NCBI GenBank assembly: GCA_977017645.1
Contig: OZ360223.1
Span: 126,914,001-126,978,000 of the forward strand
Direction: 5' to 3'
Origin: Torpedo marmorata
Lineage: Eukaryota
Length of the DNA: 64,000 bases
Of this stretch, positions 1,206 to 63,044 are shown in pieces. The notes under the pieces were generated by a model. That model made no database searches. It was not told where the DNA came from and saw nothing but the letters and a program-made list of their open reading frames with translations. The position numbers were made by a program, and so were the translations under genes. Each line of letters begins with the position of its first letter. Position 1 is the first letter of the stretch.

Positions 1206-1912
1206 GCATCCCAGCATGTGTGAATATATAGGAGAGCCGTTGGTTCAAACACAATGAAGATAAAGACAAAAATCCAAGAAGAGAAGAAAAACTTCCATTT
1301 GGGGAAGCAGAGACTTTAATAGAAGAAAACTTTGTGGAAAGTTAGCACTGGACAACTGGGAAATTCATTGTTGGTTATGAGATGGCACCACTCACTCGGT
1401 CTCTCTTATTCACTCACTCGCTGTTCCGTCATGCGCCCAGAATATTTCATTTTTACATTTACATCCACTTCTCATTTTACCTTAACCTATTATTGCATAA
1501 CCTGCTGGACCAAGGGTTGACTTGCCTGGATAGCATGCAAAACAAAGTTTTTCAGTGTATCTCAGTGCACATGACAATAAATAATTCAATTCAATTCGAG
1601 TCTGCTATTCAGTCCTTCAAGCTGTGGAGTGCAGATCATTATGAGAGTTTTTTGTCATATACATAAATACAATGTACTGTTGCACTGAAATTCTTGGGGG
1701 CACACGAGAGACTGCAGATGCTGGAATCTGGAGCAAAAAACAAGCTGCTGGAATCTGGAGCAAAAAACAAGCTGCTGGAGGAACTCAGCAGGTCAAGCAA
1801 CATCAGTGGAAGAAACAGAATGGTCAACATTTCGGGACAAGTCTTGATGAAGAGTGCAGCACACAAAAGTGCTGGACTCAGCAGGTCACGTAGCGTCCAT
1901 AGGAAGTAAAAG

Positions 1913-1952
1913 GCAGTCGACGTTTCGGGCCTGCGCCCTTCTTCAGGAGTGC
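1913..1952 (-). ncRNA. Minimal type I hammerhead ribozyme (Penelope-type)
   Basis: Minus strand gcactc-CTGAAGA-a-gggc-gcag-gccc-GAAA-CG-TC-gactgc: intact core, 4-bp stem II, stem I 5/6 paired, palindromic ACGT stem III. Confidence 0.7.
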
Positions 1953-2084
1953 TGAAAATCAGGCAGATGCCTGAATAAAAAGGTGGAGGAAGGGGGAGGA
2001 GCAGAGACTAGCAGGTAAGAGGTAATAAGTGGATACAGGAAGGAGGGTAGATGAGAAAGAAGTTGAGAAGTGATGGGGGAAGGG

Positions 2085-2328
2085 TGTGGTGGAACGAGGT
2101 ACTGCGGGTATGTCCGGGCATGTCCGGACATGTCCTCACTGGCTCACCGGGCTAACCTGTAGCCGCTCCCCATTACATCCCCTAATGAAGGCTGAGAGCC
2201 CTCGTCTCCTCCCCTATACCTGCCTTGGAAGTGAGCCAGCAGCATGTAGAGGCATGCTCAAACTTTCTGATCAATAAAGCCTTTGATCACTTTCTTCGTG
2301 TCTGTGAGTGGTCATTGATCGCGCCACA
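2085..2328 (+). repeat. 5' LTR (244 bp)
   Basis: Starts TGTGG, ends CCACA, contains AATAAA at 2273-2278, lies 27 bp upstream of the gag ATG. Confidence 0.85.
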
Positions 2329-2354
2329 ATTTATTGATCAGAATTTTAAGTGCC

Positions 2355-5300
2355 ATGGAGAAGGCAATTAGACTGGAGAAGCTGGAAACCGACCCCAAGG
2401 AACCAGAGGCCTCCGTAAAGTTCGATATGTGGCTACACTGCTTGAAGGCCTATCTAAGACGCCACGATATCACAACCGATCCTGATAAGTACGATCTGCT
2501 CTTCACAGCGGTGGGCCACAAAGCGTACCAAATTATCCGAGACTGCACCGAATATGAAGAGGCAATGGCTCTACTTCGACAACAATATGGAGCCCCGGCG
2601 AACGCCATGTATGCACGCTTCCAGCTGGGCTCCCGACGCGAGGGTCCTGGTGAGTCAGTAGACAAGTACGTGAGAGCCATGCGGGAGCTGGGACGAGCCT
2701 GCGGGTGTCAGGACGTAAGCGCGGCGCTCTACCAAGAGGAGCTCATCCGCGATGGGCTCATCTTGGGCTTCCGCTCCCAACACGTAAGAGAGCGACTCCT
2801 GGAGGAAGGAGATCGGTCCCTCCAGGTAGTGGTGCAGATGGCCTGAGCGAAGGAGACGGCCCAAAAGAACGCGGAGGCCTACTCAGCGGGCCACGCGGCC
2901 ACCAGGTGGGGAGAACGGGCGGCGCCATCTTGGGATTCGGGGCCCCTGACTGCAGCGGCCACCGCTGTCACCGCGAGGTGAAACTACTGCGGCCAAAGTA
3001 GACACCCGCGGAAGTACTGTCCGGCCCGTAGTGCAACCTGCTCAAACTGCCGGAGGAAGGGACATTATGCCAGGGTTTGTCGCTCCAAGCCCCACTCCAG
3101 CAGTGGCGCGTGCGGACCGCGACTCTCCTCGCCATCTTGGACTCACCCACTTCCGCCGTCATTTCCGGCTGCCGAAAACCAAGCTTCCGGTACAGGGGCG
3201 CAACAAAAGGGACTGACGTCACTTCCTGCTTCTTCTCCGGACTCGACCGCGTGCGATCCATGGGGGCGGCCATCTTCACGACCTCCCGGGTGGCCATCTT
3301 GGCGGCAGCCGCCCCAAAACAGCAGCAGCGACTCAGACAGTGAGCTGACGCTGGCGTCCATCGTGCTGGACCAAGGGAGACCACACCAGCTGGGGCGATC
3401 GATGATGGACGTTGAAGTAAACGGTCACTCCACTGGCTGCCTGTTCGACACAGGAAGCACTGAGAGCTTCATACACCTGGGCACTGCCGAGCGTTATTTC
3501 TTGACCGTGTCCCCAGCCAAGGGAAAGGTAGCACTAGCCTCCAAATCCCTCTCCGCGGAAATCCGTGGAAGCTGCACCGTGACCCTAACTGTGGGGGGCA
3601 CCAATTATAAGAATTTTAAACTGCTGGTAATGCCCCACCTCTGCGCACCCGTCATATTGGGGCTAGATTTCCAGTGACAGTTCAAAGAGGTGCTGATGCA
3701 GTTTGATGGGCCCCACCCCCCACTTACCGTCACTAATAACCAGGACCGGGAGGCCCCGCCCATTCCCCAGAGGAGGCCCAATCACTCGATTGAAAGCCGG
3801 GCTGGGTACCCGACCTGCGGACTAACCACCCTCCGGGTCCCTCCGCCCCCGCTGTTCCAAAACCTCACCCCGGACTGTAAACCCATTGCTACTAAGAGCA
3901 GGCGATACAGCCCCGGGGACATAAAATTCATTAAAACGGAGGTGGAGCGGCTGCGGGAGGAGGGCATTATAGAGCCAAGCAATAGTCCCTGGAGGGCGCA
4001 AGTGGTGGTGGTGAAGAGTGGGGAGAAACATCGGATGGTAATTGACTACAGTCAGACCATCAATCGGTTCACCTTACTGGATGCTTACCCTTTGCCCCGC
4101 ATATCGGAGATGGTAAATGAGATCGCCAAGTACAGGGTCTTTTCGACCATAGACCTAAAAGCGGCGTACCACCAAATCCCGATTCGCCCAAAAGACCAGC
4201 TGTACACGGCATTTGAAGCCAACGGCCGACTCTACCATTTCCTGCGAGTCCCATTCAGTCTCACGAATGGGGTGTCAGTGTTCCAAAGGGAAATGGACCG
4301 CATGGTGGATGACAATAAGCTGAAGGCTACGTTTCCATACTTGGACAATGTCACCATCTGCGGCCATGGCCAAAAGGAGCACGACGAGAACCTGCAGAGG
4401 TTCCTGGCCATTGCAAAGATACTCAACCTCACGTATAATGAGAAAAAGTGTGTCTTTAGCACCAAAAGGCTGGCAATCCTGGGGTACATGGTGGAGCATG
4501 GGGCTATCGCCCCCGACCCCGAGCATATGCGCCCCCTACTGGAATTACCCTTGCCACAGAACCCCAAGGCTTTAAAAAGGTGCCTGGGGCTCTTCTCCTA
4601 TTATGCCCAGTGGATCCCTAACTATATGGACAAGGCCCAACCTCTAGTGAGAACCACGACTTTTCCCCCGTCGGCGGAGGCCCGTAAGGCTTTCGAGGGC
4701 ATCAGAGGCAAGATTGCCAAGGCGGGAATGCACGCCATTGATGAATCCGTCTCTTTCCAAGTGGAAAGTGATGCCTCTGACTTCGCCCTGGCCGCCACGC
4801 TGAACCAAGCAGGCAGGCCAGTCGCATTTTTTTCCCGTACCCTCCAAGGCTCTGAACGCAGGCACTCCGCTATCGAGAAGGAGGCACAGGCTATAGTGGA
4901 GGCAGTGCACCACTGGAGGCACTACTTGGCCGGCAGACCATTCACTCTGCTGACGGACCAGAGAGCAGTCGCGTTCATGTTTAACAATAAACAGCGGGGT
5001 AAGATCAAAAATGACAAAATCATGAGGTGGAGAATTGAGCTGTCCACCTACAATTATGAAATATGGTACTGGCCGGGTAAGCTCAATGAGCCACCCGATG
5101 CCCTATCCAGGGGAACCTGCGCCAGGGTGCAAGTTGATCGCCTCCAGGCCCTCCACGATAGCCTCTGCCATCCCGGGGTCACTGGGCTCTACCATTTTGT
5201 GAGAGCCCGGAACCTTCCCTACTCAGTGGAGGAAGTAAGGGAGCTGACTCGCAATTGCCAGGTCTGTGCCGAATACAAGCCTCAATTTTATAGACCGGAT

Positions 5301-6134
5301 AGAGCCCAACTATTCAAAGCTACTCGTCGTTTTGAACGTCTCAGCATTGACTTCAAGGGGCCCCTCCCGTCCACGAATCTGAACTCCTACTTCCTGAACA
5401 TCGTGGACGAGTACTCACGTTTCCCATTCGCCATACCCTGCCCGGATATGACCACATCCACAGTCATTAAAGCACTCCGCTCAGTATTCACTCTATTCGG
5501 ATACCCTAGTTACGTTCATAGTGACCGGGGATCTGCTTTTATGAGTGAGGAGTTGCGGCAATACTTCCTTTCAAGCGGCATAGCTACAAGCAGAACCACC
5601 AGCTACAACCCCCGCGGGAACGGGCAGGTGGAAAGGGAGAATGGTACGATCTGGAGGGCAGTCCTTTTGGCCCTCAAGTCGAAAGGGATGCCCGTATCGC
5701 AGTGGCAAGAGGTCCTCCCAGATGCGCTGCATGCTACTAGATCCCTACACTGCACGGCCACCAATGCTACACCCCACGAAAAATTGTTCTCCTTCCCTAG
5801 GAGATCGGCGTCGGGAACCACGCTGCCAGTCTGGCTGACGACCCCAGGGCCGGTGCTTCTTCAGAAGCACGTTAGGACTCATAAGGCGGACCTGCATGCC
5901 AACCCCCAGTATGCGCTGGTAAGGTACCCGGACGGACCGTACGATACAGTGTCCATCCGGGATCTGGCGCGAGCTGGGGCCCCGGCACGGGAGGTGCACC
6001 CGATATCCCCAGGCAGCAACCAGTCGGCCCCAGGGATCACCCTGACAAATGAAAGGGGGATTCCACCCCCAAGACGGCCCACCGATTGTTCCCCTTCACT
6101 TGTGTGTCCCAATAAATTGTGGCGCGATCAATGA
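2355..6134 (+). pseudogene. Gypsy gag-pol polyprotein in one frame with three premature stops (2844, 2979, 3675)
   Basis: Gag with zinc knuckle CSNCRRKGHYARVC, protease LFDTGS, RT YLDN, RNase H ESDASD, integrase HHCC plus D-D-E (IDFKGP, HSDRG, QVERENG); ORFs 2334, 3363 and 3690 share one frame. Confidence 0.93.
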
Positions 6135-6227
6135 ACACTCACAGACACGAAGAAAGTGATCAAAGGCTAGCCCGGTGAGCCAGTGAGGACATGCCTGGAC
6201 ATACCCACAGTACCGCGTTCCACCACA
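6110..6227 (-). repeat. Inverted, internally deleted copy of the LTR
   Basis: Reverse complement equals 2085-~2154 (lacking one 10-bp tandem unit) joined to ~2279-2336, with about 4 substitutions. Confidence 0.92.
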
Positions 6228-7130
6228 AAGGGGCAGAGGGCTAAGAAGGGAAAAGGGGTGGGGAGCTGGAGGAAGGGAGTCAGGGGGTGAAGGAAAGAGA
6301 GAGACAAGGGGAGGGGGTTAACATAAATTTGAGAAGTCAACATTTATGCCGTCTAATTGGAGAGTGCCCAGATACAAAATATAAGATGTTGTTCCTTCAA
6401 TTTGCATGTGGCATTTTGGTGAAGGTTTCCAGCCCGAAACCTCTTCTCCCACTGATGCTGCTCAACCCGCTGAGTTCCTCCAGGAGATTGTTTTTTTGCA
6501 CTGAAATTCTTACTTGCTAAACCACGCAGCTACATAAGATACACCAACTACGATTGTATAAATTCAATTACCACAACGCATCATGAGATGGAAAAAGGGA
6601 TAATAAGTATAAAAGGATAGATAAATAAATATTCACAGTTGCAGTTAGAGTTTCCATGTGTTAAAAACAATCGCCTTCTTCTGGTTCTTTTGCCTTTTAT
6701 TAAAATTCAAATCCCTTAGATTATTTTGATTGTCGAAATGAAAGCACTACATCGTGAGCTGAAGGGCCTGTACTGTGCTGGAATGTTCTTTGTATAATGA
6801 TAGAATTATGTAGTGTAACATTTCAGCTGTTATTTTTAGGAGACACATCCAATTCACACAGATGTGATGGAAGGATCGTTCCCAGCTGTAATGTACAATT
6901 TTTCCCAAAGTATTAGGTTACAAAATGGAAGAAATGCTTCCTCATTAGTTTTATAAGGGACTGATGCAGCTATATAAACAGTGGACAAGATTCACAATGT
7001 TTCATTCTCGGAGAATAGATCTTGGGTCCTTATTCCCTGATAGTTTGTGCAACTCTCTGCAGTTTTTTGCTGCTTTATCCCAAGCAGTTCCTGTACCAAG
7101 GTGTGATGCATCCATACAGGATACTTTCCA

Positions 7131-7969
7131 TGCAAACAACAACCTTGCACTCAATGTCACCAAAACTAAGGAGCTGATTGTTGACTTCAGGAAATGAAAG
7201 CCAGAGGTATACAATCCAGTGATCATTGGGGGATCAGAGGTGGAGAGGGTGAGCAAATTTAAGTTCTTGGGAGTCACTATCTCGGAGGATCTGTCCTGGA
7301 CCCAACACACCAATGGCATCGTGAAGAAAGCACATCAGCGCCTCTACTTCCTCAGGAGTTTGTGGAGGTTTGATATGACACCAGAAACCCTGGCAAATTT
7401 CTACAGATGTGTGGTGGAAAGTGTGCTGACCGGCTGCATCACGGTCTGGTATGGGAACACCAATACCCATGAGCGTAAAGTCCTCCAAAAGATAGTGGAC
7501 ACAGCCCAGGACATCACAGGCAAAACCCTCCCTACTTTTGAGTACATCTACAGGGAACGCTGCCGTCAGAGCAGCAGCAATCATCAAAGACCCACACCAC
7601 CCAACACACGCTCTGTTCTCGCTGCTATCAGGAAAGAGGTATCTGTGCCACAAGACTCGCACCACCAGGTTCAGGAACAGCTGCTACCCCTCCACCATCT
7701 CACTCCTCAACGACAAACTCAGAGACTCATTTAAGGACTCTTACTTGTGCACTTTATTGATTTTCTTTTTTATTCTCTCTGTATTGCACAGTCAGTTTGT
7801 TTACATTCGTTATCTGTTTACAGTTCTTTATTTGTTTACATGTTTTACGCTGTGTACAGTTTTTTTTTGCACTACCAGTTAGTGGTAATTCTGCCGCGCC
7901 CGCAGGAAAAAGAATCTCAGGGTTGTATGTGATGTCATGTATGTACTCTGACAATAAATCTGAAATCTG
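7131..7969 (+). mobile_element. Rex1/Babar-type LINE, 5'-truncated
   Basis: NNLALNVTKTKELIVDFRK, FKFLGVTISEDLSW, KKAHQRLYFLR motifs; tail gacaataaatctgaaatctg. Confidence 0.85.
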
Positions 7970-9454: not shown

Positions 9455-10992
9455 TTTTAAAAAATATTTTATTTAAAATTTTAAATCACACAATACATAA
9501 TATAAAAAGCAAAATTATCAAAATACATGTGATACATTTCCCCCCCTCCCTCCCCTCCCCAACCCTCCCAATCCCACTAATCTAATAAAAATATAAAATA
9601 AAATAAAAATAGAAAAGTAAAAATAGAAAAGGAGAAAAAGAAAGAAAAAGAGAAACAAAGTTAGGGGAATGCCAATTTCTAAACTACTTCTATTATGGAG
9701 GTCAGGTATGCCAGTAGACTCAATACCCAGAGATCCTCAAATTCTTAAACCAACAGCTCTCATATATGGGCTCCAAATTTTTAAGAAAAAATGATATTTA
9801 TTACGTAAATTATAAGTAATTTTTTCAAGTGGTATACATGAACGAAGTTCTGCATGCCATCTTTCTAATCCTAGATCTAAATCAGATTTCCAAGTAATAG
9901 CAATGCATTTCTTTGAAACAGCTAAAGCAATTCGCAAAAATTCTATTTGATACATGTTTAATTTCATCTTAATACTAAATTTTCTAATATCTCCGAACAA
10001 AAATATCATAGGATCCATTGGAAACGTAATTTTAAATACTTTATCTAAAAAACTTTTAACTTTCAACCAAAACTCATAAACTTTTGGACAAAACCATGTA
10101 GAATGTACAAAAGATCCTTCTTCTTTATTACATCCTAAAACATAAACCTGATAGTTTCGGATTAAATTTCTTTAATTTTTTAGGTGTTAAATATAATTGA
10201 TGAAAAAAATTATATTGAACTAATCTATATCTAACATTAATAATCTTTGTCATACTTAATTTAGATAATTCTTTCCAATGGTTTTCATCTATTCTTACAT
10301 TCAAATCCAATTCCCATTTTAATCTTGATTTATGCAATCCTACTTTAGGCATTTTCCTCTGAAACAATTTATACATTTGAGAAATAAATTTATTAACATC
10401 CCCATTAGTAACTAATAATTCTAATTCATCTTGTCTTGGCAAAATAAAAGCGTAACCTAATTTCTCAATCAAAAAAGCTCTAATTTGATAATAAGCAAAA
10501 AGTGTATTATCTAATATATTAAATTTATCTTTCATTCTTTGAAAAGTAATAAATTTTCCCGCTTCAAAACAATCATTACTTTTCTTAATTCCTTTTTGAA
10601 ACCAAATTTTAAATAATTGATTATTAACAGTAAATGGAATAAGTCCATTTTGATATAAAGGCATTCTTGAAGAAATCAATCCTTTTGCTCCTATTTCCTT
10701 ATCTGTCTTATACCATATTTCTAACAAATGTTTAAAAATAGGCGAATTTTTCTTTTTTGTTAATATTAATTTAGAATCCCATTTGTAAATACCGGTAATT
10801 TCTTCTTTGGAATCTTCTCCTATATTATTTAATTCTATTTTAATCCAAGCAGAAGATTTAGTTACCGTATATTTCGGCGTATAAGTCGACCCTTGAAACC
10901 CTCAAAAATGTCTCAAAAAACGGGGGTCGACTTATACGCCGGATATACTTTTGAGACCTTAAAATCAGCTCAAAATCGAGTTCACGCCGATC

Positions 10993-11140
10993 CGGCGTAT
11001 AAGTCGACCCCTGAAAACACGGTTCCGCGTATAAGTCGACCCCTGAAAACACGGTTCCGCGTATAAGTCGACCCCTGAAAACACGATTCCGCGTATAAGT
11101 CGACCCCTGAAAACATGATTCGGCGTATAAGTCGACCCCT
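10993..11140. repeat. Subterminal tandem array, 5 x 32 bp, containing the TIR core CGTATAAGTCGACC
   Basis: aagtcgac at 11001, 11033, 11065, 11097 and 11129. Confidence 0.9.
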
Positions 11141-11208
11141 GCAAAACCAAAAAAAAACCCGACTGCAACAAATTTTCATTGACATTTTAATTGAAAACAA
11201 CAAGACAT

Positions 11209-12558: not shown

Positions 12559-12564
12559 CTCCAG

Positions 12565-12950
12565 CCAACGCCCAGCAGCTCAATGATCGCGATCGTTATG
12601 GGTCGACCTATACGCCGGTCACCGCCCAGCAGCTCAATGATCGCGATCGTTATGGGTCGATCTATACGCCAGTCAACGCCCAGCAGCTCAATGATCTCGA
12701 GCGGTGTGGGTCGATCTATACGTCATTCAACGGCCAGCAGCTCAATCATCGCGTTTTTTTAGGGGTCGACCTATACGCCGGTCAACGCCTAGCAGCTCAA
12801 TCATCGCGTTTTTTTAGGGGTCGACCTATACGCCGGTCAACGCCTAGCAGCTCAATCATTGCGTTTTTGTAGGGTCGACTTATACGCCGGTCAATGCGCA
12901 ACATCTCAGGCATCGAGATTTTTGGGGTCGACTTATACGCCGGATATACC
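12565..12950. repeat. Subterminal tandem array, 7 x 53-55 bp, containing GGTCGACYTATACGCC
   Basis: gtcga at 12602, 12656, 12710, 12765, 12820, 12874 and 12927. Confidence 0.88.
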
Positions 12951-34547: not shown

Positions 34548-37500
34548 TTTTGTGTTTTGGAGAACCTCTGAGTATAGTCAGAGGTTTTAGTAGTTAACGT
34601 ACACCGTCAAACAAACAGAGACAAGGCACACATGACTTGATAGAGTTAGATCTAAGACTCATAGCACATGGTCCAAGCAATGGTCCAGTCACATTCTGAG
34701 GTGGTTCAGTCATAGCCGTACAGAACTTCCATTTTACCATATATGGTTATAGTGGACATTCCTTGGGTAGTAAATATGCAACAGACCATTTACATACAAC
34801 AATGAGGTTAATGACTTACTAATGAAGTTACTACTTTCCTCCCTTCTAGATCATGACTTCTATAACTCTTAAGTCATGTGTCTTCAAGAAAACATGTGAT
34901 CACACTTTTCAACTCGGTACAAGTGCATACAATAAATATTGTACCTTATCCTTTTAACAATATCAAAGATTTAGTTTCTGCTGTTTCAATTCCAAATCAA
35001 TTACCCAACGACTTGTGTATTATTGCTTATTACAGTACATTTTATTTTATGAGGGAGTGTACCGGTCATTTCAGACTTTACTTTAAATCTGTAATTATGA
35101 CATAACAGAACATACTTAGGCCTATCATTACACAGACTTATACAATACCATGAGCTTACGGTTCATAACGCTTTGGAGGTCGAACGACTCTGCCTGACCG
35201 TGTAACTACGAGTGGGATTTCTTTGTCGATTTGAGCTGGGAGTGATTGGTCACTAAGATCCGAATTAGGAGTCGAGTGTGAACTGAGTGTCGGTACTGAA
35301 TTTGGAGTCGAATGTGAATTGGGTGTCGGGACTGCATCATCATCTAAATCAACAAGTGTGTGCGGTTCAGACGGGTCATCTACAGATTCATTACTCCTAG
35401 AGTCATCTGGGATCAGATGATCTGCATGAACAAACCTTCTATTGTTTCCTGGTACTCTAACCAAATATGTGAGCGGTCCCTTTATTGATACTATAGTCCC
35501 AGGTAGCCATCTTTCCTTCCCTCCCCTCATGTTTCTGACTCTAACTGATTGATAAAGATCAAATGATCGCATTTTGGGATGCGCCCCGTCTCTTTGATCT
35601 TTGGTTGCGATTTGTTTCTTCTCTACTTTCTGTTTGAGACTGGGCTTCACTAAAGAAAGTTGAGTTCGCGGAGCGCGCTTGAGGAATAACTCTGCTGGAA
35701 TTTTTCCGGTGCTTGTGTGTGGTGTATTTCTGGAATGAAACAACGCGTTTGCTACCTTATGTTGGATGGGTAGCTTCTTGTCTGATTTTTCAAGCAGCCG
35801 CTTGAAAGTCTGAACATGCCTTTCGGCTAAAGCATTCCTGTCTGGGTGGTATGGAGGGCAAACGGTGTACTTGATGCCATTACCCTTGAGGAATGATGCA
35901 AACTCCTCAGATGTAAACTGCGGGCCATTATCACTAATTACCTGTAAGGGCAATCCAAAACGGGCAAATAGTGATCGCAGCGCCGTGATGGTAGCAGCTG
36001 ATGTAGTGCTACTCATCGGAAATGCTTCCAGCCACTTCGAATGGCTGTCTACTACAAGTAGAAATTGCTGACCTTTGACTTTGGAAAAGTCAATGTGAAT
36101 TCTCTGCCATGGATCCGTGGCCCAAGGCCAGAGCAGCAATGGTACTTGTTTAGGTGTGTTATGAGCTTCAACACACGTAGAACAAGTGCGCACTGTGTCT
36201 TCGATATCCTGGTCGATACCAGGCCACCAAATGAATGATCGTGCAAGAGCCTTCATTCGGCTCATGCCAGGGTGACATTCATGTAATTCCTTGAGTAGGT
36301 GCTGGCGCTGCACCTCTGGGATGACAACTCATCTACCCCATAGAATGCATCCATCTTCCAAGGACAACTCGTGTCGACGCGTGAAATATGGTTGCAGCGA
36401 TGCATCCTCGTTATGATTTGCCCATCCCGACAGGGTGTGTTCATACACCTTTGCAAGCACATGATCTTTTCTTGTTCGATCTGCAATTTGCTGTGCAGTT
36501 ACTGGTAGATGATCTACAGTAGTTTGATGCGCGTACACCTCATCTGGATGAGGAGTAGCAGTAGTCAGGGGTAACCTACTCAATAGGTCTGCATTTGCGT
36601 TGCGAGACGAAGATCGATATTCAATCTGATATCGATAGCCAGAGAGGAGCAAAGCCCATCTCTGCATGCGAGCAGCAGCCATAGGGGGAATCCCCGATTT
36701 CGGACCGAAATGGCTGATGGTCTGTAACGATAGTGAAATTTTTGCCATAAAGGTAGAGGTGAAACTTCCGCACGCCAAGCACAATCGCCAAGCCTTCCTT
36801 GTCTATTTGCGCATAGTTTTTCTCAGCAGCGCTCAGCGTTCTCGACGCATATGCAATTGGCTTTTCTGAGCCGTCATCCAGTTTGTGACTTAAGACAGCC
36901 CCTAGTCCATAGGGACTTGCATCCACACTCAAAACTAATGGTTTCAATGGATCATAATGGACTAGAACATGGTCACTAGCTAACATGTTTTTCGCACACT
37001 CAAATTCTTCTTCACATTTTGTGCACCATTTCCACTCTGCGGAGTGTTGCAGCAGCTCATAGAGCGGGTGTAGTTTTTAGCTCAGATTTGGAACGAATTT
37101 CCCATAGTAATTTATCATCCCGAGGAAATATTTCAGTTCAGAGACGTTCTCTGGTCTTCGCGCATTTTTGATCTCCTCTACTTTGTCCTGCAATGGCTTA
37201 ATGCCATCAGCAGTGAGAATGTGTCTGAGGTAACTGATAGTCGGCTTCAGAAATTGGCACTTCACACGAATGAGTCGCACATTATTTTTGTCCAGCCGGG
37301 CAAACAGCTCTGCTGGTACCTTCATGTGCTGGTCGTAGGTATCGGTCGCGATCAAAATGTCATCGACGTAGCAAAAAACATGCTCCATGCCTGACAAAAT
37401 CTTGTCCATAGTCGCTTGGAACAAGACTGGCGTAGTTTTCACTCCAAAGCACAAGTGTTTGGGTGCAAGCAAGCCTTGAGAGTGTTGATCACGAGGAGTT

Positions 37501-39529
37501 CAGCCGACTCCTCATCGAGAAGGAGCTGGTTAAACGCACCAGCTAGGTCAATGACCAAATACACTTTCGGCGTAGTACCATCTTGTGCAAGTTTCGCGAA
37601 CAAATCTTACGCATTGGGCAGCTTATAGCCATCATCCTCGATGACCTCATTCACGCCTTGTAATCACCACACACGCGAATATTCCCTTGAGACTTGGGAA
37701 CATGAACTGTGGGCGAGGCCCACTCACTATGTGCAACAGGGGTCAGTATGTCCTCATTTATGAGCCGCTCATACTCTTTATTTACGGTTTCCACCAGTGC
37801 ATAGGCCACGGGTCGCGCTTTCTGAAACGTCGGTTTTGCACCTGGCTTGCGTTTAATTGAAGCAGTAAACCCTTTTATGCCCGATCCTTCCTTCCCAAAC
37901 AATCTTTCATGCTTTCTTAGAACTGAGTCCAACTCAGACTGGGCAGAAGATGTGGCCACCCGTTTATGGTGTGATTTAGGGGTTGGCTTGGGCTGAGATT
38001 TGGTCTCATTACCCTGATCCCTAACCACCAAAATGTTCTCCCATTTCAATCTGATTTTGGTAAGCCAGTCTCTCCCAAAGAGAGCTGGACGATTTCCTTT
38101 CACAATCAACAATTCAAGCATGAATGTTTCACAATTTTCGTACCGCACTGGGACAGTTATCTTACCACGGAGTGGTACGATCTCCCCACAGTAGCTCCTA
38201 AGGATGATATTTGTTTCCTCTGTTGGAAACTCTGACAATTTTGCATAGTACACCGAGTCAGACAGGGTCGAACGGGAAGCTCCTGTATCTACTTCCATCT
38301 CAATACATGCATTTCCTACATTTACGTTAACCTTATACGGTACAAATGTACGGTAGCACTCACCCTTAAGCTGAAACAACTCAAATGCCTTATCCGTTTG
38401 TACACTCTCAGTCTTAGAGTCATCGTCGGAATCAGTTTCAACAAATCTTGTCTTCTCGTGGCCATGCTTTGAGGGGAAACACACCGAGCGAATATGTCTT
38501 CGCTTCTTGCATCCGTGGCACGTAGAGTCTTTGAATCGGCAGGTGTCAGCCCGATGTTTTCCCCCACAGCACTTGCACTGCATCCCCTTGTTGAATGAGT
38601 TATAAGGAAATTTTGACGTCTGCTTCTTCCTCACCTGGCCTAGCCGATGTGCATCTCTGTTGCTGGCCGCTTTCCCCATGTAGTCCTGGTTTGCTGCCCC
38701 CGCCATCTCGTCAGCGATGCCTTTAGCCCTTGCGTTGTCGAACGTCAACTCCCAAACCGAAAGAAGATGTCGCTGAGTACGGGACATTTTGGGATGTAGT
38801 CCTGAAACAAGTCTGTCTCAGAGTGCCTCCTTCAAAAAAAGATCCAAAGGAACAAGTTGAATCCAAATGTTTCAGTCTGACGACAAAATCTGCCATGGAC
38901 TCTCTCTCTCCCTGTTGTGCCGTCCAAAAATTATGCCTCTCTGCAATGACGATAGGTGCCATCTTAAAATGTTCAGTAAGCTGCTTCTTTAAGTCTGCAT
39001 ATTCCTTTCTGCAGGGCTGATCCGGACTGCACAGATTTTTCAGCAACTTGTATGCCGCCGGTCCCACACTTGCAAGAAATAAACTCGTTTTCTTGCCCTC
39101 AGCAATGGTATTGGCATTGAAAAAGGCATCCATGTGATCAGCATAGTCCTCAAAAGACTCCACAGCCTCATCAAAAACACCAACATTACCGAAAACTGCC
39201 ATCGTGGGTACTTTAAAAGTCCTCGTCGCCAATTTTGTGTTTTGGAGAACCTCTGAGTATAGTCAGAGGTTTTAGTAGTACACCGTCAAACGAACAGAGA
39301 CAAGGCACACATGACTTGATAGAGTTAGATCTAAGACTCAAGTGGTTTATTCACATAGCACATGGTCCAAGCAATGGTTCAGTCACATTCCAAGGTGGTT
39401 CAGTCATAGCTGTACAGAACTTCCATTTTACCATATATGGTTATAGTGGACATTCCTTGGGTACTAAATATGCAACAGACCATTTACATATAACAATGAG
39501 GTTAATGACTTACTAATGAGGTTACTACT
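34548..39529 (-). mobile_element. Gypsy/Ty3 LTR retrotransposon (Mag-like), full length, frameshifted
   Basis: Direct LTRs 34548-34835 and 39233-39529; PBS TGGCGACGAGGAC (39231-39219); PPT AGAAGGGAGGAA next to the 3' LTR; TSD (T)TCGG. Confidence 0.94.
35156..39202 (-). pseudogene. Gypsy gag-pol (gag, zinc knuckles, protease VDTGA, RT YVDD, RNase H, integrase)
   Basis: Collinear ORF fragments 38723-39232, 37651-38787, 37077-37472, 36621-36986, 36329-36784 and an open integrase 35156-36313 (HIDF, SDNGPQF, LAER). Confidence 0.93.
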
Positions 39530-39777
39530 TCGGCGCAGACTAGAAGGACCAAAGGGTCTGTTTTCTGTGCTGTGATGTCCTATAGTTCTATGGTTCTATG
39601 AACCATTTTCTTCTACATCATTTAATTATGCTGTTTAAGAGCAGAGTTTACATAAGGTTGAATGTAAAGAAGTTTATTAAAGATAACAAGACATCAACAT
39701 CTGACCCTAGAGGTTGACCAGGGGTAAATTGAGGAAGGAGAGAAAAACACAGGGAAAAATGTTGGAAGGAAACATCA

Positions 39778-52669: not shown

Positions 52670-54558
52670 CAGTGTGCCAGATGTCGAAGGGTATCAGGGA
52701 AAGGGAAGTGAGTCAGTTAATATTTCAAGGGAGAAAGTGCTCAGAAAGCTGAATGGTCTAAGGGTGGATAAATCTTCTGGACCAGATGGATTGCACCCTC
52801 GGTCCTGAAAGAAGTAGCAGTAGAGATTGTGGAGGCATTGGTAATGATCTTTCAAGAATCAATAGATTCTGGCGTGGTCCCGGAGGACTGGAAAATTGCA
52901 AATGTCACCCAACTATTCAAGAAGAGACTGGGCAGCAGAAAGGAAATTATAGGCCAGTTAGCCTGATGTCAGTGGTTGGGAAGATGTTGGAGTCGATTGT
53001 AAAGGATGAGGTTACAGAGTACTTGGAGGCACATGACAGGATAGGCCAAAGCCAGCATGGCTTCCTTAAGGGAAAATCTTGCTTGACAAACCCATTGGAA
53101 TTCTTTGAGGAAGTGACAAGCAAGCTGGATAAGGGAGATGCAGTGGATGTTGTGCATTTGGATTTTCAGAGGCCTTTGACAAGGCACATGAGGCTACTTA
53201 ACAAGATAAGAGCCCATGGTATAATAGGATACATACCAGCATTGGCTGATTAGCAAGAAGCAGAGAGTTTGAATAAAAGGATCACCAATCAGCACCGTAG
53301 CCTGAATACGACTGGGATTGTCTGATCTCGGAAGCGAAGCAGGCACAGGACTGGTCAGTACTTGGAGGGGAGACCGCCTAGGAACACCAGGTGCTGTAGG
53401 TTTCTGTGAGGGGCGCTGGAAAAAGTAGCGACCCTCTGTCTGCCTTACGGTAGACAAAAATTAAAGAATTTCATGTATGTTACATTCTAAATGTAGTATT
53501 ACGTGACAATAATGGAACCTTTACCTATATATTCTGATTGGTTGCCAGTTGCTAGTGGTGTTCCACAGGGGTCGGTGTTGGGGCCATTTCTTTTTGTGTT
53601 GTATATTAATGATTTCAATGATGGAATGAATGGCTTTGTGGCAAAGTTTGCAGATGATACAAAGGTAGGTGGAGGGGCAGGTTGAGTAGAGGAAACATGG
53701 AGGCTGCAGAAAGACTTGGACAGATTAGGAGAATTGTCAGAGAAGTGGCAAATGAAATAAAATGTCGGAAAGTGTACGGTCATGCACTTTGGTAGAAAAA
53801 AATAAACGGGCAGACTATTTTTAAATGGGGAGAAAATTGAAAATACCCAGATGCAAAGGGACCTGGGAGTCCTCATGCAGGATAGCCCAAAAGGTAAACT
53901 TGCATGTTGAGTTAGTAGTGAAAAAGGCAAATGCAATGCTGGCATTCATTTCAAGAGGAATAGAATATAAGTGCAGGGAGTGATGTTGAGGCTTTATAAG
54001 GCACTGGCGAGACCTCACGGAGTATTGTGAGCAGTTTTGGGCTTCTCATTTAAGAAAAGATGTGCTGACATTGGAGAGGATTCCAAAGGAGATTCACTAG
54101 GATAATTCCGGGAAAATGAGGAGCGTTTGACAGCTCTTGGCCTGTATTCATTGGAATTTAGAAGAATGAGAAGGGGATCTCATTGAAACATTTCAAATGT
54201 TGAAAGACATGGACAGAGTAGATGTAGTAAGGTTGCTTCCCATGGTGGGAGAGTCTAGGACAAGAGGGTACAACTTCAGGATTGAAGGACGCCTGCTTAG
54301 AACAGAGATGCGTACGCATTTCTTCAGCCAGAGGGTGGTAAATTTGTGGAATGTGTTGCCACAAGCAGTTGTGGAGGCTAGGTGATTGGGTGTATTTAAG
54401 ACAGAGATTGCTAGGTTCTTGATTAGCCGGGGCATCAAGGGTTATGGGGAGAAGGCTGGGCAGTGGGGCTGAGTGGAAAAATGGATCAGCTCATGATTAA
54501 ATGGTGGGGCAGACTCGATGGGCTGAAAAGCCTATTTCTTTTCCTATGTCTTATGGTC
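52670..54558 (+). mobile_element. CR1-clade LINE, RT region to tail, degraded
   Basis: NYRPVSLMSVVGKMLE, QHGFLKGKSCLTN, SGVPQGSVLGP, KFADDTK, FFSQRVVNLWN. Confidence 0.92.
53288..53526 (+). mobile_element. 5S rRNA-derived SINE (SINE3-type)
   Basis: 53290-53403 aligns with 5S rRNA (gtctgatctcggaagcgaagcagg..tggtcagtacttggaggggagaccgcctaggaacaccaggtgctgtagg), followed by a ~120-nt body and a LINE-like tail gtgacaataatggaacctttacc. Confidence 0.85.
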
Positions 54559-56592
54559 AAATGGTTTTAATGTTTGGCCAGTATCGAGGAGCAGCTGTGT
54601 GAGCAGGACCCCAACATGCATCAGATAAGACTGACCCAGAATGCCAACTTGGTTGGCATGGACGAGTTGGGCCGAAGGGTCTGTTCCGTGCTGTATGACT
54701 CTATCATGAGCTGGGCGGGATCATGTTGCCACTGAAAAAAATATCCTCGATGCTCCTCACCTGGAAGTAGATGGTGGGAGTAGGTTCTCGTAACATTTAA
54801 AAAATATTTCACTGAGCACTTGAAACACCAAAGTCGTAAAATGGGATAGGTATTGATCATCCAGAATGGGCAAATGTCTGTTCCCAGTATGGCTCCATGA
54901 CTCTTTGACTTCCTGGAGAAGTATGATGATCTCAACTTTCACCAGCTTCCACAAAGGCCTTATAATGTGAGAATCAGAAGAGATACCTCCCCCTGTTTCA
55001 GGAAAGCTGCTCACATATTAAAGGACCCATCCCATCCTGGTCAGCGCGAGATTCGAACCCCCCATCCCGATCGCTGTCTGTCAGAGGATACACGAGCTTG
55101 AAAGCACGAACCTCCAGATTCAAGGACAGTTTTTTTTTCCTTCTGTTATCAGACTCTTAAATGGACCTCTCACTGGTGAAAGATAATGCCCTTGAACTGA
55201 TTTAACTGTGTATTTCTCTATATCCTGCACTTTGTCTTTGTAACACTATTTTTGCACTCGTTCACTTACAATAACACGACACCCTGCATTTTATTCTTGC
55301 ACAACCTATTCGACTAGATGTAGGTTGACTTGCCTGGATAGCACGCAGACTAAAGCCCTTCAATATATCTCAGGTGACAATAAAGCATTCAGTTCAGATT
55401 CTTTCCTCAGCTGCTCTCTCCCCTGCAGGAGTGTGATGGGATTTGACCAGGACCTGTCATCAGTGTGTATCATTCCAGGTGCTGATGAGATTCTATTGAA
55501 AACTGCCGGGATATCCTGTCTTCGGTTTCACAATGCTAGCTGGATAGTAATTTTGCTCTAATAGAGATAGACATTTTATTTAAGCATTTTAGCTCCCACC
55601 AAATGTCCAGCCACTTCACAAAACCAATGCATTTCTTTTTATGTTCAATTAAATCACATCCCTGGTACTAAACACCAGTAGCAAACGTTCCGTCAAAGGA
55701 ATATGTCAGTGCTAACAGGATGTATGTCAAAACATCAGAGGAGCAGGAGACACACAAGGTCTGCAGATGCTGGAATCTGGAGTCAAAAACAAACTGCTGG
55801 AGGGACTCAGGGGTCAGGCAGCAGCTATGGAGGGGAATGGACCGTTGACATTTTGGATTGAAACCCTGCTTCAGGACTGAGAAAAGAGAGGGTGAATGAG
55901 CAGGGATAAAGAGGAGATGGGGAGTGATCAGTAGGTGAAAGGTGGACCATGAAGGGGTGAAAATGACAGAGATGGGGACAGCTGTGGGGAGCAGGAGGGT
56001 TGGAGTTGGGAGACAGAAAAAAAAAATATCTAAGGATAGAATAAATACAGTGCCCTCCATAATGTTTGGGACAAAGACACTTTTTTCCTTTATTTGCCCC
56101 TATGCTCCACAGTTTTAAATTTGTAATCAAACAATTCACGTGATTAAAGTGCACATTCCAGATTTTATTCAAGGTTATTTATATACATTTTGGTTTGACC
56201 ATGTAGATATTACAGCATTTTTTATACATAGTCCTCTCATTTCAGGGCACCATAATGTTTGGGACATTTGGCTTCACAGATGTTTGTGAGAACTTAGGTA
56301 TTCCAAGGAAGACCTCCACTGCTCATCATAATGAAGAAAAATCCCCAAAAGCATGTCCGGCAGATCAGAAACACTCTTCAGGAGGCAGGTGTGGATGACC
56401 CGGCTTTTCTTGGTTCAGTGTGAACGACCTGACCTGGATCCAAACACGGGTCATTCACACGCCAATTAAATGGGATCGCTGTGTAAAAGGAAGAATGACT
56501 ACTGGCTGCAGAAGACGTCATGAACAGAAATACAGAGGCTATACTGCAAGATGCAAACCATGGCAAAGGTGGTATGCTTTGGATCTTGAGCA

Positions 56593-56834
56593 GTAAAGGT
56601 AAAGGTTCCATTATTGGAACGTAATACTACATTTAGAATGTAACATACATGAAATTCTTTAATTTTTGTCTACCGTAAGGCAGACAGAGAGTCGCTACTT
56701 TGTCCAGCTCCCCTCACAGAAACCTACAGCACCTGGTGTTCCTTGGTGGTCTCCCCTCCAAGTACTGACCAGTCCTGTGCCTGCTTAGCTTCCGAGATCA
56801 GACAATCCCAGTCGTATTCAGGCTATTGGTGCTG
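56593..56834 (-). mobile_element. 5S rRNA-derived SINE (second copy)
   Basis: Reverse complement is closely similar to 53288-53526 over head, body and ACCTTT-repeat tail. Confidence 0.85.
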
Positions 56835-57752
56835 AACCCCTAAACAGGGGCTACATAGATCTAGACAGAGATGGGAGTCAGACTTGGATATAATAATTAA
56901 TGAGCAAAACTGGTCCAACTTATGTCGGGACAGTATGAAAAACACAATAAATGTGAGATACAGACTGGTGCAATACAATTTTTTGCACCAGTTGTATCTC
57001 ACGCCACAATAATTGAATAAATTTAAATCAGAAATATCAGATAAATGTTTTAGATGCAGCAAAGAAATAGGAACGTTTTTACATTTCACCTGGTCATGCC
57101 CCAAATTTAAACCTTTCTGGACAGACTTAGGGAAACTCTTAGAACAATTTACAGAAATTCAGTTCCCACAACGCCCAGAATTATTTCTATTGGGCAATAT
57201 CTCCGGCGTAAGACCTAAGATGAGGCTGTCAAAATTTCAAATAAAATTTGTGGAGATAGCATTGGCAGTGGCCAGGAAATGTATAGCTGTCCCATCTAGG
57301 TATGACAAGATGGCATGAGGAAATGTACAGTTGTGTTACCCTTGAGAAGGTTACCTATAATCTTAGAAATAGATATGATATATTTTTAAAGATTTGAACT
57401 CCATATTTACAACACATGGCTGTAAATCTATAACCAGGCCCCCCCTCGTCTCCAGGACCTATGTCCATTTCCTCTTCAGAAATCCGAGTATGCCAAGTAA
57501 TTTAAGCCTGCGGGGTGGACGACAAGTCTCCAACGTCTTCTTTCCTTTTCTATTTCAACCGTTTCTTATTCTATTCCTCTCTTTTTTTCTTTTGGGGGGA
57601 ATTGGGTGGGTGGGTTTTCCTTTGTTTGTAATTTTGTTGTTGTTTTTTAGTATAATAGTCAACAAACAAATATTATATTTGATGATGTATTATTTTTGTT
57701 ATTGATAATATGTTTGGCTTTAAAAAATACAAATAAAATATTCCAAAAAAAA
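56835..57752 (+). mobile_element. L1-clade LINE (L1-F), 5'-truncated
   Basis: RYRLVQYNFLHQLYLTP, CFRCSKEIGTFLHFTWSCP; aataaa plus A tail; imperfect TSD aggctatt(g/a)gtgc(t/a)g at 56820-56834 and 57753-57767. Confidence 0.88.
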
Positions 57753-59319
57753 AGGCTATTAGTGCAGTACCTTTACACCTCCACATTTTGCTCTTCCCAT
57801 CACTCTGATACAGGTCAGTCTTGGTCTCATCTGTCCACAAGACCTTTTTCTAGAATTCTGCAAGCTCTTTTAAATACTTCTTGGCAAACTGTAATCTGGC
57901 CATCCTTTCTGTGGCTAACTAGTGGTTTGCATCTTGCAATGTAGCCTCTGTATTTGCTTTCAGGAAGTCTTCTGCAGACAGTAGTCATTGACATATCCAC
58001 ACCTGCCTCCTGAAGAGAATTCTTCTGTCATCAGCAGTGGAGTTCTTCCTTGGAATACCAGTCCCTTTGTGATTACTGAGCTCACCAGTATGCTCTTTCT
58101 TCTTAATGATGTTCCAAACTGTTGATTTTGGTAATCTAAAGTTTGGGCGGTGTCTCTTACTGTTTTATTCTTGTTTTTCAGCTTCATAATGGCTTCTTTG
58201 ACTTTCATTGGCACAACTCTGGTCCTCATGTTTAAAATGGCAACTACAGACTCCAAAGGTGATCAAAAGCTTAGAAGCAAGTCCAGATCTCTTATACCTG
58301 CACCAATGAAGCAATTAAACATACCTGAGCAATCGCAAACACCTGTGAAGCCAAATGTCCCAAACATTATGGTGCCCTGAAATGGGGAGACAATGTATAA
58401 AAGGTGCTGTAATTTCTACATGGTCAAACCAAAATGTATATAAATAACCTTGAATAAAATCTGGAATGTGCACTTTAATTACATGTGAATTGTTTGATTA
58501 CAAATTTAAAACTGTGGAGCACAGGGGCAATTAAAGGAAAAATGTGTCTTTGTTCCAAACATTATGGAGGGCACTGTATATATTCACTATTGCAGTTAAT
58601 GCAAGTGACATTTCAATATTGCCGACATTTCAATATTGCCAGCAGATCTTTTGGTGGGTCTGGAGTAGTTTATAGTCATGGTTAGGGGAGTAGGGTAGGC
58701 TCAAGAGCCCAATAGCTGTTGGATTAAAAACTGTTCTTGAACCTAGAGGTGCCAGACGTCAGACCTCTGTTCCTTCTGCCTGAAGGGAGCAGAGGGATGA
58801 GGTTGTGACCAGGGCGATAGGGATCTTTTCGATGTTGGTTGCCTCACATAGATGGCTGCAGTTGATGGGAGGTCAGTTCCTGTGATGAACTTGGCTGTGT
58901 TTGCCGCTCTCTGCAGCCTTCTGCGTTCCTGGGCACTCAACTTTCCAAACCAGGTTGTGGTGCAACAAGTCAGTGTACTTCCCACAGAATGACAGACAGC
59001 TCTTTTCCCTCTTGTCACCCCTGTTGCTAACCTCCAGTAGATAAACTGGATCTTCAATTTAGTGGCATTTTTACTTCCTTCCTAAAAAGGTGTGATTAAA
59101 ATCTCGGTCCTCGGACACAGCACACTCAGTGTAGTTGATCTGAAGCTGAAGTGACAATGTTCAAAGTTGAGTCCACTCTTTCCCTCTGTCACACTCCTAA
59201 TCCCTCTATTATTCATTACAATGTGCATCAGGATTATCCCTAGGATTGGGATTATCACTGGGATTGGGATTCCCTCCCTGTATCCATTCCAAGGAACAGA
59301 ATGGAATGAAGAATTTTTT

Positions 59320-62807: not shown

Positions 62808-63044
62808 CTGCAAACAACAAAATGTATTTCATTGTATACTTGGGGCTCAGTGGAAGTAAAGGCTGATCCTGCTCTATCCGTCTCCCACACTATCCCAATA
62901 AGCTTAAATGAATCTCAAAGAACAGCACCTCATCTTCCAACTGGCCACCTTGCAGCCTTCCAGATTCAACACTGAGTTTGCCAATTTCCAATATTGAGTT
63001 TGCAATTCCATTCACACCTTCTCTGCACCCATCTTTTGTATATT

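Follow-up and report, generated by a model that had tools for sequence, protein, structure and literature searches.

A Torpedo marmorata Gypsy retrotransposon copy with an inverted partial 5' LTR at its right end, probably a product of faulty reverse transcription

Ty3/Gypsy retrotransposons encode a protease (PR), reverse transcriptase (RT), RNase H (RH), and integrase (IN) between two direct long terminal repeats (LTRs), with a primer-binding site (PBS) behind the 5' LTR and a polypurine tract (PPT) ahead of the 3' LTR, and they duplicate 4–6 bp of target DNA. We analyzed a 64,000-nucleotide (nt) stretch of the Torpedo marmorata genome (GenBank assembly GCA_977017645.1, contig OZ360223.1, positions 126,914,001–126,978,000 of the forward strand; hereafter the window), which harbors a Gypsy element on its plus strand at 2085–6227. 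Like Ty3/Gypsy, this element has PR-RT-RH-IN in one frame, a DDE integrase, a TG...CA 5' LTR followed by a PBS, and a target-site duplication (TSD) of 5 bp. Unlike Ty3/Gypsy, it lacks a PPT, a direct 3' LTR, and the RRSxR-type motif at the end of the integrase, and carries instead an inverted partial copy of its 5' LTR and PBS. We consider it probable that the locus is a one-off copy, dead on arrival, which faulty reverse transcription made from an ordinary Gypsy element with self-priming and direct LTRs and which integrase then inserted.

The closest described priming mechanism is that of Tf1/sushi elements, in which, as in the window element, the PBS pairs with an upstream LTR segment and not with a tRNA (PMC4600332, PMC7175516, PMC6317226). 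In Tf1, the transcript's initial 11 bases anneal to the PBS, with RNase H cutting between bases 11 and 12 (PMC7175516; also PMC4600332). The primer in the window differs in being about 14 nt long and in containing AATAAA. The nearest clade is a metazoan Gypsy group found in rays, sharks, and marine invertebrates, which shares with the window element a YxDN motif in the RT and the self-primer helix. The precomputed domains of 120 homologs include no Chromo Pfam family, so the clade is probably not a chromovirus lineage. We found no name for this clade in the literature covered; one candidate name, 'Smug', did not occur among the papers listed, and neither PMC6238403 nor PMC12440569 yielded a passage on priming.

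Two groups with inverted ends also invite comparison. Ginger1 and Ginger2/Tdd transposons resemble the window element in placing a Gypsy-like H2C2-DDE integrase between inverted, TG-initial ends; the inverted arm of the window, at 118 nt, falls within the Ginger range of 40–270 bp, and TDD-4 and TDD-5 likewise make 5-bp TSDs (PMC2836005). Ginger1 is characterized by a 4-bp TSD (CCGG/CCGT), a YPYY motif, and an OTU/Ulp1 domain, and Ginger2 by an RTATAY target (PMC2836005). In contrast, the window element keeps gag, PR, RT, and RH, its TSD is a purine-rich 5-mer and not CCGG/CCGT, its arms are unequal and one of them bears PBS sequence, and neither YPYY nor OTU/Ulp1 was found; its integrase is far closer to RT-bearing polyproteins, in a tree that contains no Ginger sequences. 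Membership in Ginger was rejected on the retained RT, RH, and PR, on the target site and TSD, and on the missing YPYY and OTU/Ulp1. DIRS elements share an RT-RH module between non-identical inverted termini (PMC7192593). They were also rejected: the window element encodes an rve integrase and has a TSD, no recombinase family was detected in the three open reading frame (ORF) pieces scanned, and there is no internal complementary region.

Aberrant strand-transfer proviruses of HIV-1 resemble the locus in that their junctions fall at the strong-stop end or within primer-derived sequence; the words 'inverted' and 'inversion' do not occur in that report (PMC12657518). Inversion circles made by autointegration are a further case of inversions generated inside particles (PMC7197481). 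As defined there, neither end is left over in such a circle, and its junction would lie at the LTR edge, whereas the window arm extends 8 nt beyond it, and this origin was rejected.

The left half of the element conforms to the original prediction of a normal 5' LTR in a gag-PR-RT-RH-IN element. The LTR (2085–2328, 244 nt) begins with TGTGG and ends with CCACA, carries a TATA-like box at 2215, and contains three units of a 10-nt tandem repeat near 2110–2138. Downstream lie the N-terminal part of gag (2355–2846, with a premature stop at 2844), a zinc-knuckle region visible in the translation together with an aspartyl protease (2982–3677; Pfam Asp_protease_2, E 3.8e-11), and RT, RNase H, and integrase (3678–6134, with the H2C2 and DDE motifs intact), and the Pfam assignments give the Gypsy domain order PR, RT, RH, IN. 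No Pfam family matched the gag part, which was recognized by its 28–38% identity to the gag of six related loci (L001, L002, L004, L008, L010, and L013); no longer gag relatives were found among 2436 candidates searched. The best PDB match of pol is Ty3 Gag-Pol (E 3e-66), and the catalytic residues are present. The RT active site reads YLDN (4338–4349, RT residue 221) in place of YxDD, a YxDN motif that recurs in 81 of the 120 homologs; a literature search for YLDN or YXDN returned no paper using the term. The gag-to-IN frame holds three internal stops, at 2844, 2979, and 3675, the zinc-knuckle/protease piece sits between the last two, and the C-terminal module of the integrase has an 8-residue gap. 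The locus is a defective Gypsy derivative and not itself an intact member, a single dead copy without evident host function, and the 64-kb window contains no second copy.

The right end departs from the Gypsy plan. The arm at 6110–6227, which lies in minus orientation, consists of the start of the U3 (unique 3') region (2085–2153 minus one 10-nt unit), 2278–2328, and 8 nt of spacer and PBS. Its reverse complement matches 2085–2118, 2129–2153, and 2278–2336 at 31/34, 25/25, and 58/59 positions, respectively (114/118 in total; blastn within the window, E 4e-23 and 6e-15), confirming that this segment is an inverted copy of the 5' LTR. The predicted deletion of ~125 nt from the middle of the LTR proved to be 124 nt (2154–2277, the breakpoint being ambiguous by 1 nt) and takes with it the TATA-like box and most of AATAAA; the loss of one 10-nt tandem unit had gone unmentioned. 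Eight nucleotides do extend past the LTR, as predicted, and they comprise a single spacer base followed by half of the PBS (7 of its 14 bases), not 8 nt of PBS. Four substitutions separate the arm from the LTR, two of them CpG-type changes located in the right arm, a pattern that fits decay after insertion.

The outer end of the arm is the exact U3 terminus, so that both outer ends of the element are U3-type, as had been claimed; the 12 outermost nucleotides form a perfect terminal inverted repeat. The unit is flanked by identical copies of AAGGG at 2080–2084 and 6228–6232, the perfect 5-bp TSD of the original prediction, equal in length to that of relative L004. At the inner junction (6109/6110), the integrase tail is joined to inverted PBS sequence. 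Neither a PPT nor a direct 3' LTR was found before or at the right arm, in agreement with the claim that both have been replaced: the longest purine run in 5900–6109 is 10 nt, ~50 nt upstream of the junction. The integrase frame enters the inverted repeat, since the pol ORF (3678–6134) terminates within the arm, which encodes its final seven codons. The arm is not a 3' LTR flipped by simple inversion, because its inner side bears PBS sequence, as a 5'-type LTR would, and not a TSD.

The clue to the origin of the arm is that the element appears to prime itself, a feature overlooked by the original prediction. The PBS (2330–2343) begins 1 nt after the LTR end and is a perfect 14-nt complement of LTR positions 2265–2278, a match found in 0 of 20,000 shuffles. 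A published criterion for self-priming is an LTR complement no shorter than 10 nt, located no more than 5 nt from the LTR end (PMC6317226), and the window has one of 14 nt. Priming by a tRNA was rejected: no TGG follows the LTR, and the self-complement stands in its place. The predicted self-primer is the 5' end of the transcript (2265–2278) and includes the AATAAA at 2273; transcription start at the primer and cleavage at 2278/2279 are predicted by analogy to Tf1. The primer/PBS region folds at z -4.1. The same helix, 10–17 nt perfect with z -3.2 to -6.2, is present in all five relatives whose gag-upstream region was examined (L001, L002, L004, L008, and L010; L013 was left out, as its gag starts at the locus edge). 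In the alignment of these six sequences, 93% of cells pair and 8 of the 14 pairs have changed on both sides, a level reached by 0 of 500 shuffles and compared with 27–48% in slid registers; the shuffle test takes the sequences as independent, with relatedness uncorrected, and about five of them count as independent, L004 and L008 being closely related. In five of the six, the primer ends in TAAA followed by GCC and therefore overlaps a polyadenylation-like signal. We found no description of self-priming in the YxDN clade in the literature covered, which leaves out most subscription journals and Repbase reports.

The arm's three breakpoints are the U3 terminus (at its exact first base), the 3' end of the self-primer, and a point 7 nt into the PBS. 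Because these coincide with landmarks of reverse transcription, the most fitting reading of the arm is a complete plus-strand strong-stop DNA, of the shape expected in a self-priming element. If breakage were uniform, coincidences such as the two inner ones would arise with probabilities of roughly 0.012 and 0.004, for landmarks picked after the data had been seen. The 2278/2279 deletion breakpoint fits primer cleavage there, short of proof. Homology at the 124-nt jump is weak, with 1 nt exact, 7/13 matches in register downstream, and a 4-nt match 7 nt further on.

Related elements were compared for the orientation of their LTRs. A scan of GTDB contigs gave 18 loci, of which 13, at 44–61% identity, were kept; the other five (L014–L018), integrase-only matches at 35% identity, were considered unrelated and excluded from the LTR tally. 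The 13 are probably animal DNA in bacterial bins, judging from tandem repeats and content. Several of the GTDB bins behind L003–L013 (Ekhidna, Rubritalea, Leptonemataceae) hold repeat-rich Gypsy contigs, and host contamination is probable there. Six of the 13 have a gag match. Both loci with two LTRs have them in direct orientation: L004 (97.0% identity over 201 nt, preceded by a PPT, with a 5-bp TSD) and L008 (88.8% over 197 nt, also preceded by a PPT). The L001 and L002 contigs, each of ~4 kb, hold whole elements in circular permutation, with IN, PPT, LTR, PBS, and gag following one another in the same sense; having just one LTR, they represent either repeats that were collapsed or one-LTR circles, and many of the top protein matches likewise sit on ~4-kb contigs. 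After IN, L005, L006, and L012 continue into a PPT and the start of an L004-type LTR in sense orientation, and L003, L011, and L013 into a purine tract, with no 5' LTR for comparison; L007, L009, and L010 end before this region. None of the 13 has an inverted LTR. L013 contains a 212-nt inverted pair that lies within the element and is not terminal.

In protein comparisons, the 22 best matches are 63–75% identical, and 16 of them are named from Hypanus, Scyliorhinus, Mobula, or Hemitrygon. An RRSxR-type terminal motif occurs in 80 of the 120 homologs, a median of 85 residues past the last conserved block (range 48–132; 83–113 in 14 of the closest homologs), the remaining 40 being fragments, mis-spliced models, or proteins with other tails. 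In the window, the integrase has 47 residues up to the junction at 6109 and no RRSxR motif. A FastTree phylogeny of RH-IN (46 rows: 41 of 118 usable homologs, two loci, the window, and one distant outgroup as root; built without named Gypsy clades or Ginger references) nests the window protein among tail-bearing proteins (support 0.95 and 0.88), with the group of the L001 protein as its sister (0.99). A protein cluster search in Atlas returned only generic RT/RNase H clusters.

We propose the following route. The first ~14 nt of the transcript would pair with the PBS, be cut off, and prime minus-strand DNA; the helix itself is present in the DNA, and its use as a primer is predicted. With the primer cut off from the transcript, minus-strand DNA would therefore end at about 2279. 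This strong-stop DNA may then have landed wrongly in U3 (2153), removing 124 nt exactly to the primer end. A PPT-primed plus strand would have copied this truncated LTR together with some of the primer still attached, to give a plus-strand strong-stop DNA running from the U3 terminus to PBS+7. Through its free PBS end, this product may have become attached, with reversed polarity, to the integrase tail of another template that had been copied normally; mis-priming on plus-sense RNA could have done this, or else a template switch of the plus strand, and the tail, PPT, and 3' LTR would thereby have been replaced. The outcome would be a linear DNA with two U3 ends, both CCACA-3' as at the normal U5 end, which was inserted, presumably by integrase, with the observed 5-bp duplication and would have decayed thereafter. 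Two templates would have been needed in one particle, or a single one if the 124-nt deletion arose later.

Parts of this route have precedents. In Tf1, ~50% of the cDNA retains the PBS in single-stranded form at the 3' end, and these ends anneal to microhomologies (PMC11042837). Among HIV proviruses, the deletion junction lay at the strong-stop end in 4 of 61 aberrant first transfers, from 395 sequences (PMC12657518). The original prediction had offered an aberrant reverse-transcription product, still inserted by integrase, as one of two explanations, and the match of the arm to plus-strand strong-stop DNA of a self-priming element lends it support.

Several points weigh against a reverse-transcription origin. 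The insertion step supposes that integrases accept two U3 ends. The reading draws on one locus, its intermediate steps are reconstructed, and any microhomology at 6109/6110 would be readable only from an intact copy. The relatives, at 44–61% identity, stand outside the element's own family, and the flanks of L008 match at only 3 of 5 positions. The primer/PBS hairpin could also form in single-stranded DNA, and two of the breakpoints could therefore be hairpin-driven without RT. The last 5 nt shared by U5 (unique 5') and the inverted U3 would let post-integration repair keep the TSD. Finally, the case for colinear host flanks is one of base composition alone: in alignments of the flanks to repeat copies within the window, 181/300 and 6/300 shuffles scored at least as well.

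Some of these points feed the best-placed alternative, a rearrangement after integration, which we judge unlikely. A normal, TSD-flanked copy would have lost its 3' end and been patched by template switching during replication or repair, with the PBS and 5' LTR of its own or another copy copied backwards and the switch returning at the shared CCACA. The inverted U3 end and the U5 end have these last 5 nt in common and agree at six of the final seven positions, the 14-bp hairpin carries the two internal breakpoints, and the TSD would be kept automatically; a guppy endogenous retrovirus with one inverted LTR has been tentatively ascribed to recombination (PMC5210030). However, three switches would be needed that happen to mimic the exact shape of plus-strand strong-stop DNA, and a rearrangement does not predict a deletion that ends at the 3' end of the primer.

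The second explanation offered by the original prediction, a Ginger-like family that retains RT, fared worse, and we hold a true inverted-termini subfamily to be very unlikely. Such a subfamily would move by integrase cut-and-paste, as Ginger does, or through some other RNA cycle. The inverted TG...CA ends with 12 perfect terminal nucleotides, the clean TSD, and the intact DDE triad would suit it, and the junction furnishes a stop codon as well as an AATAAA at 6111. The relatives show a PPT and direct LTRs and none an inverted one, though, and the window protein nests among ordinary polyproteins. No protein with a junction-derived tail was found at E<=10 among 137 candidates, a search limited by the short tail and the possible absence of host proteins, and none ended in that tail among 16 further matches or the 135 collected proteins. 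The arms are unequal, the right one without the promoter region; neither terminal 40 nt has an internal copy (longest match, 8 nt); and the frame has three internal stops. The copy could presumably not renew itself through RNA either, because a transcript from 2265 would lack a PPT. The first jump would find no partner, since minus-strand strong-stop DNA and the 3' arm of the transcript are alike in sense; the full left LTR would be irrecoverable from RNA, because 2154–2264 exists only upstream of the start; and a DIRS-style rescue would fail for want of an internal complementary region.

Also very unlikely, and if anything a shade less credible, is the idea that two oppositely oriented insertions were joined by a deletion or rearrangement, with the 5-bp match arising by chance. 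Chance is easier here than the nominal 1/1024, because the flanks are purine-rich and of low complexity: the purine fraction is 0.79–0.83 at 1960–2084 and 0.85–0.87 at 6228–6320, 5-mers drawn at random, one from each 100-nt flank, match at a rate of 0.0076, and the right flank has the TSD 5-mer at 5 of its 96 positions. The two U3 parts do differ by the 10-nt unit and a few substitutions, and LTRs in opposite orientation are, in the proposal of Bao et al., a source of Ginger terminal inverted repeats (PMC2836005). Against this, a chance TSD would have to coincide with two chance breakpoints on reverse-transcription landmarks, and both insertions would have to enter the same rare G/A-rich tract, since only 4 of 1279 plus-strand 50-nt bins are of this kind and 2 of the 4 abut the element. 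An assembly or read chimera, to which the single locus would lend itself, is the least credible account, as fold-back or collapse artefacts yield near-identical copies, whereas these arms differ by four substitutions, a 10-nt unit, and a 124-nt deletion, are TSD-bounded, and lie in a window that contains no N.

If the copy did arise by faulty reverse transcription, it suggests that one such event can leave the gene for integrase flanked by inverted ends on which the enzyme can act, and that a DNA of this kind can reach the germ line with a clean duplication. A mis-copied element of this kind shows one way in which retrotransposons could come to resemble DNA transposons. We see only a slim chance that the inverted-end form recurs in the host genome, with integrase having re-mobilized the RT-error unit as DNA. 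Were that true, it would be a Gypsy element turning Ginger-like with RT aboard, by a one-step strong-stop fusion beside the two-insertion route to Ginger terminal inverted repeats of Bao et al. 2010 (PMC2836005). The literature covered, outside most subscription journals and Repbase, yielded no Gypsy copy reported to carry two U3 ends and to have been inserted by integrase; what it did yield concerned DIRS elements, HIV, and the one guppy provirus with an inverted LTR. The locus would also keep an indirect trace of the self-primer cut site in a widespread marine-animal YxDN Gypsy clade. The searchable signature is a TSD-bounded inverted arm that starts at the U3 terminus and extends into the PBS, which LTR finders demanding direct repeats would overlook.

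The element sits in repetitive host DNA. The left flank (1900–2079, minus strand) combines a G/A-rich tract with the terminal part of a host repeat that has other copies in the window, and the right flank (6233–6430, minus strand) runs from a G/A-rich tract, recognized by its purine fraction, into a degenerate ORF end, whose peptide shows short similarity to 62908–62994. The host site (1700–2084 plus 6233–6430) is one that we take to be the 3' end of a Penelope-type repeat, for which Pfam and Rfam gave no confirmation: three flank peptide pieces matched no Pfam family, and Rfam had no match in 1500–7000 at E<=1. The site comprises an ORF end, a pyrimidine tract, and minus-strand hammerhead-like motifs, of which the one in the left flank folds no better than shuffles (z -0.18).

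Other repeats occupy the remainder of the window. A second, unrelated Gypsy-like element lies on the minus strand at about 34550–39530, with 26–31% identity to the pol described above and direct LTRs of ~290 nt (90% identity) that apparently start with AGT and not TG. Two overlapping long inverted-repeat pairs, at 53298–56825 (232 nt at 96%) and 56039–58585 (165 and 104 nt at 91–94%), are probably DNA transposons; the CAGTG ends of the latter are presumably Tc1/mariner-like. A C-terminal fragment of a LINE-like (long interspersed nuclear element) RT spans 7198–7734 (Pfam ALKBH8_N, E 2.8e-12) and has several further copies in the window. Short tandem arrays of 32-nt and 54-nt units, at 10873–11154 and 12561–12928, respectively, have a GTCGAC-containing motif in common.

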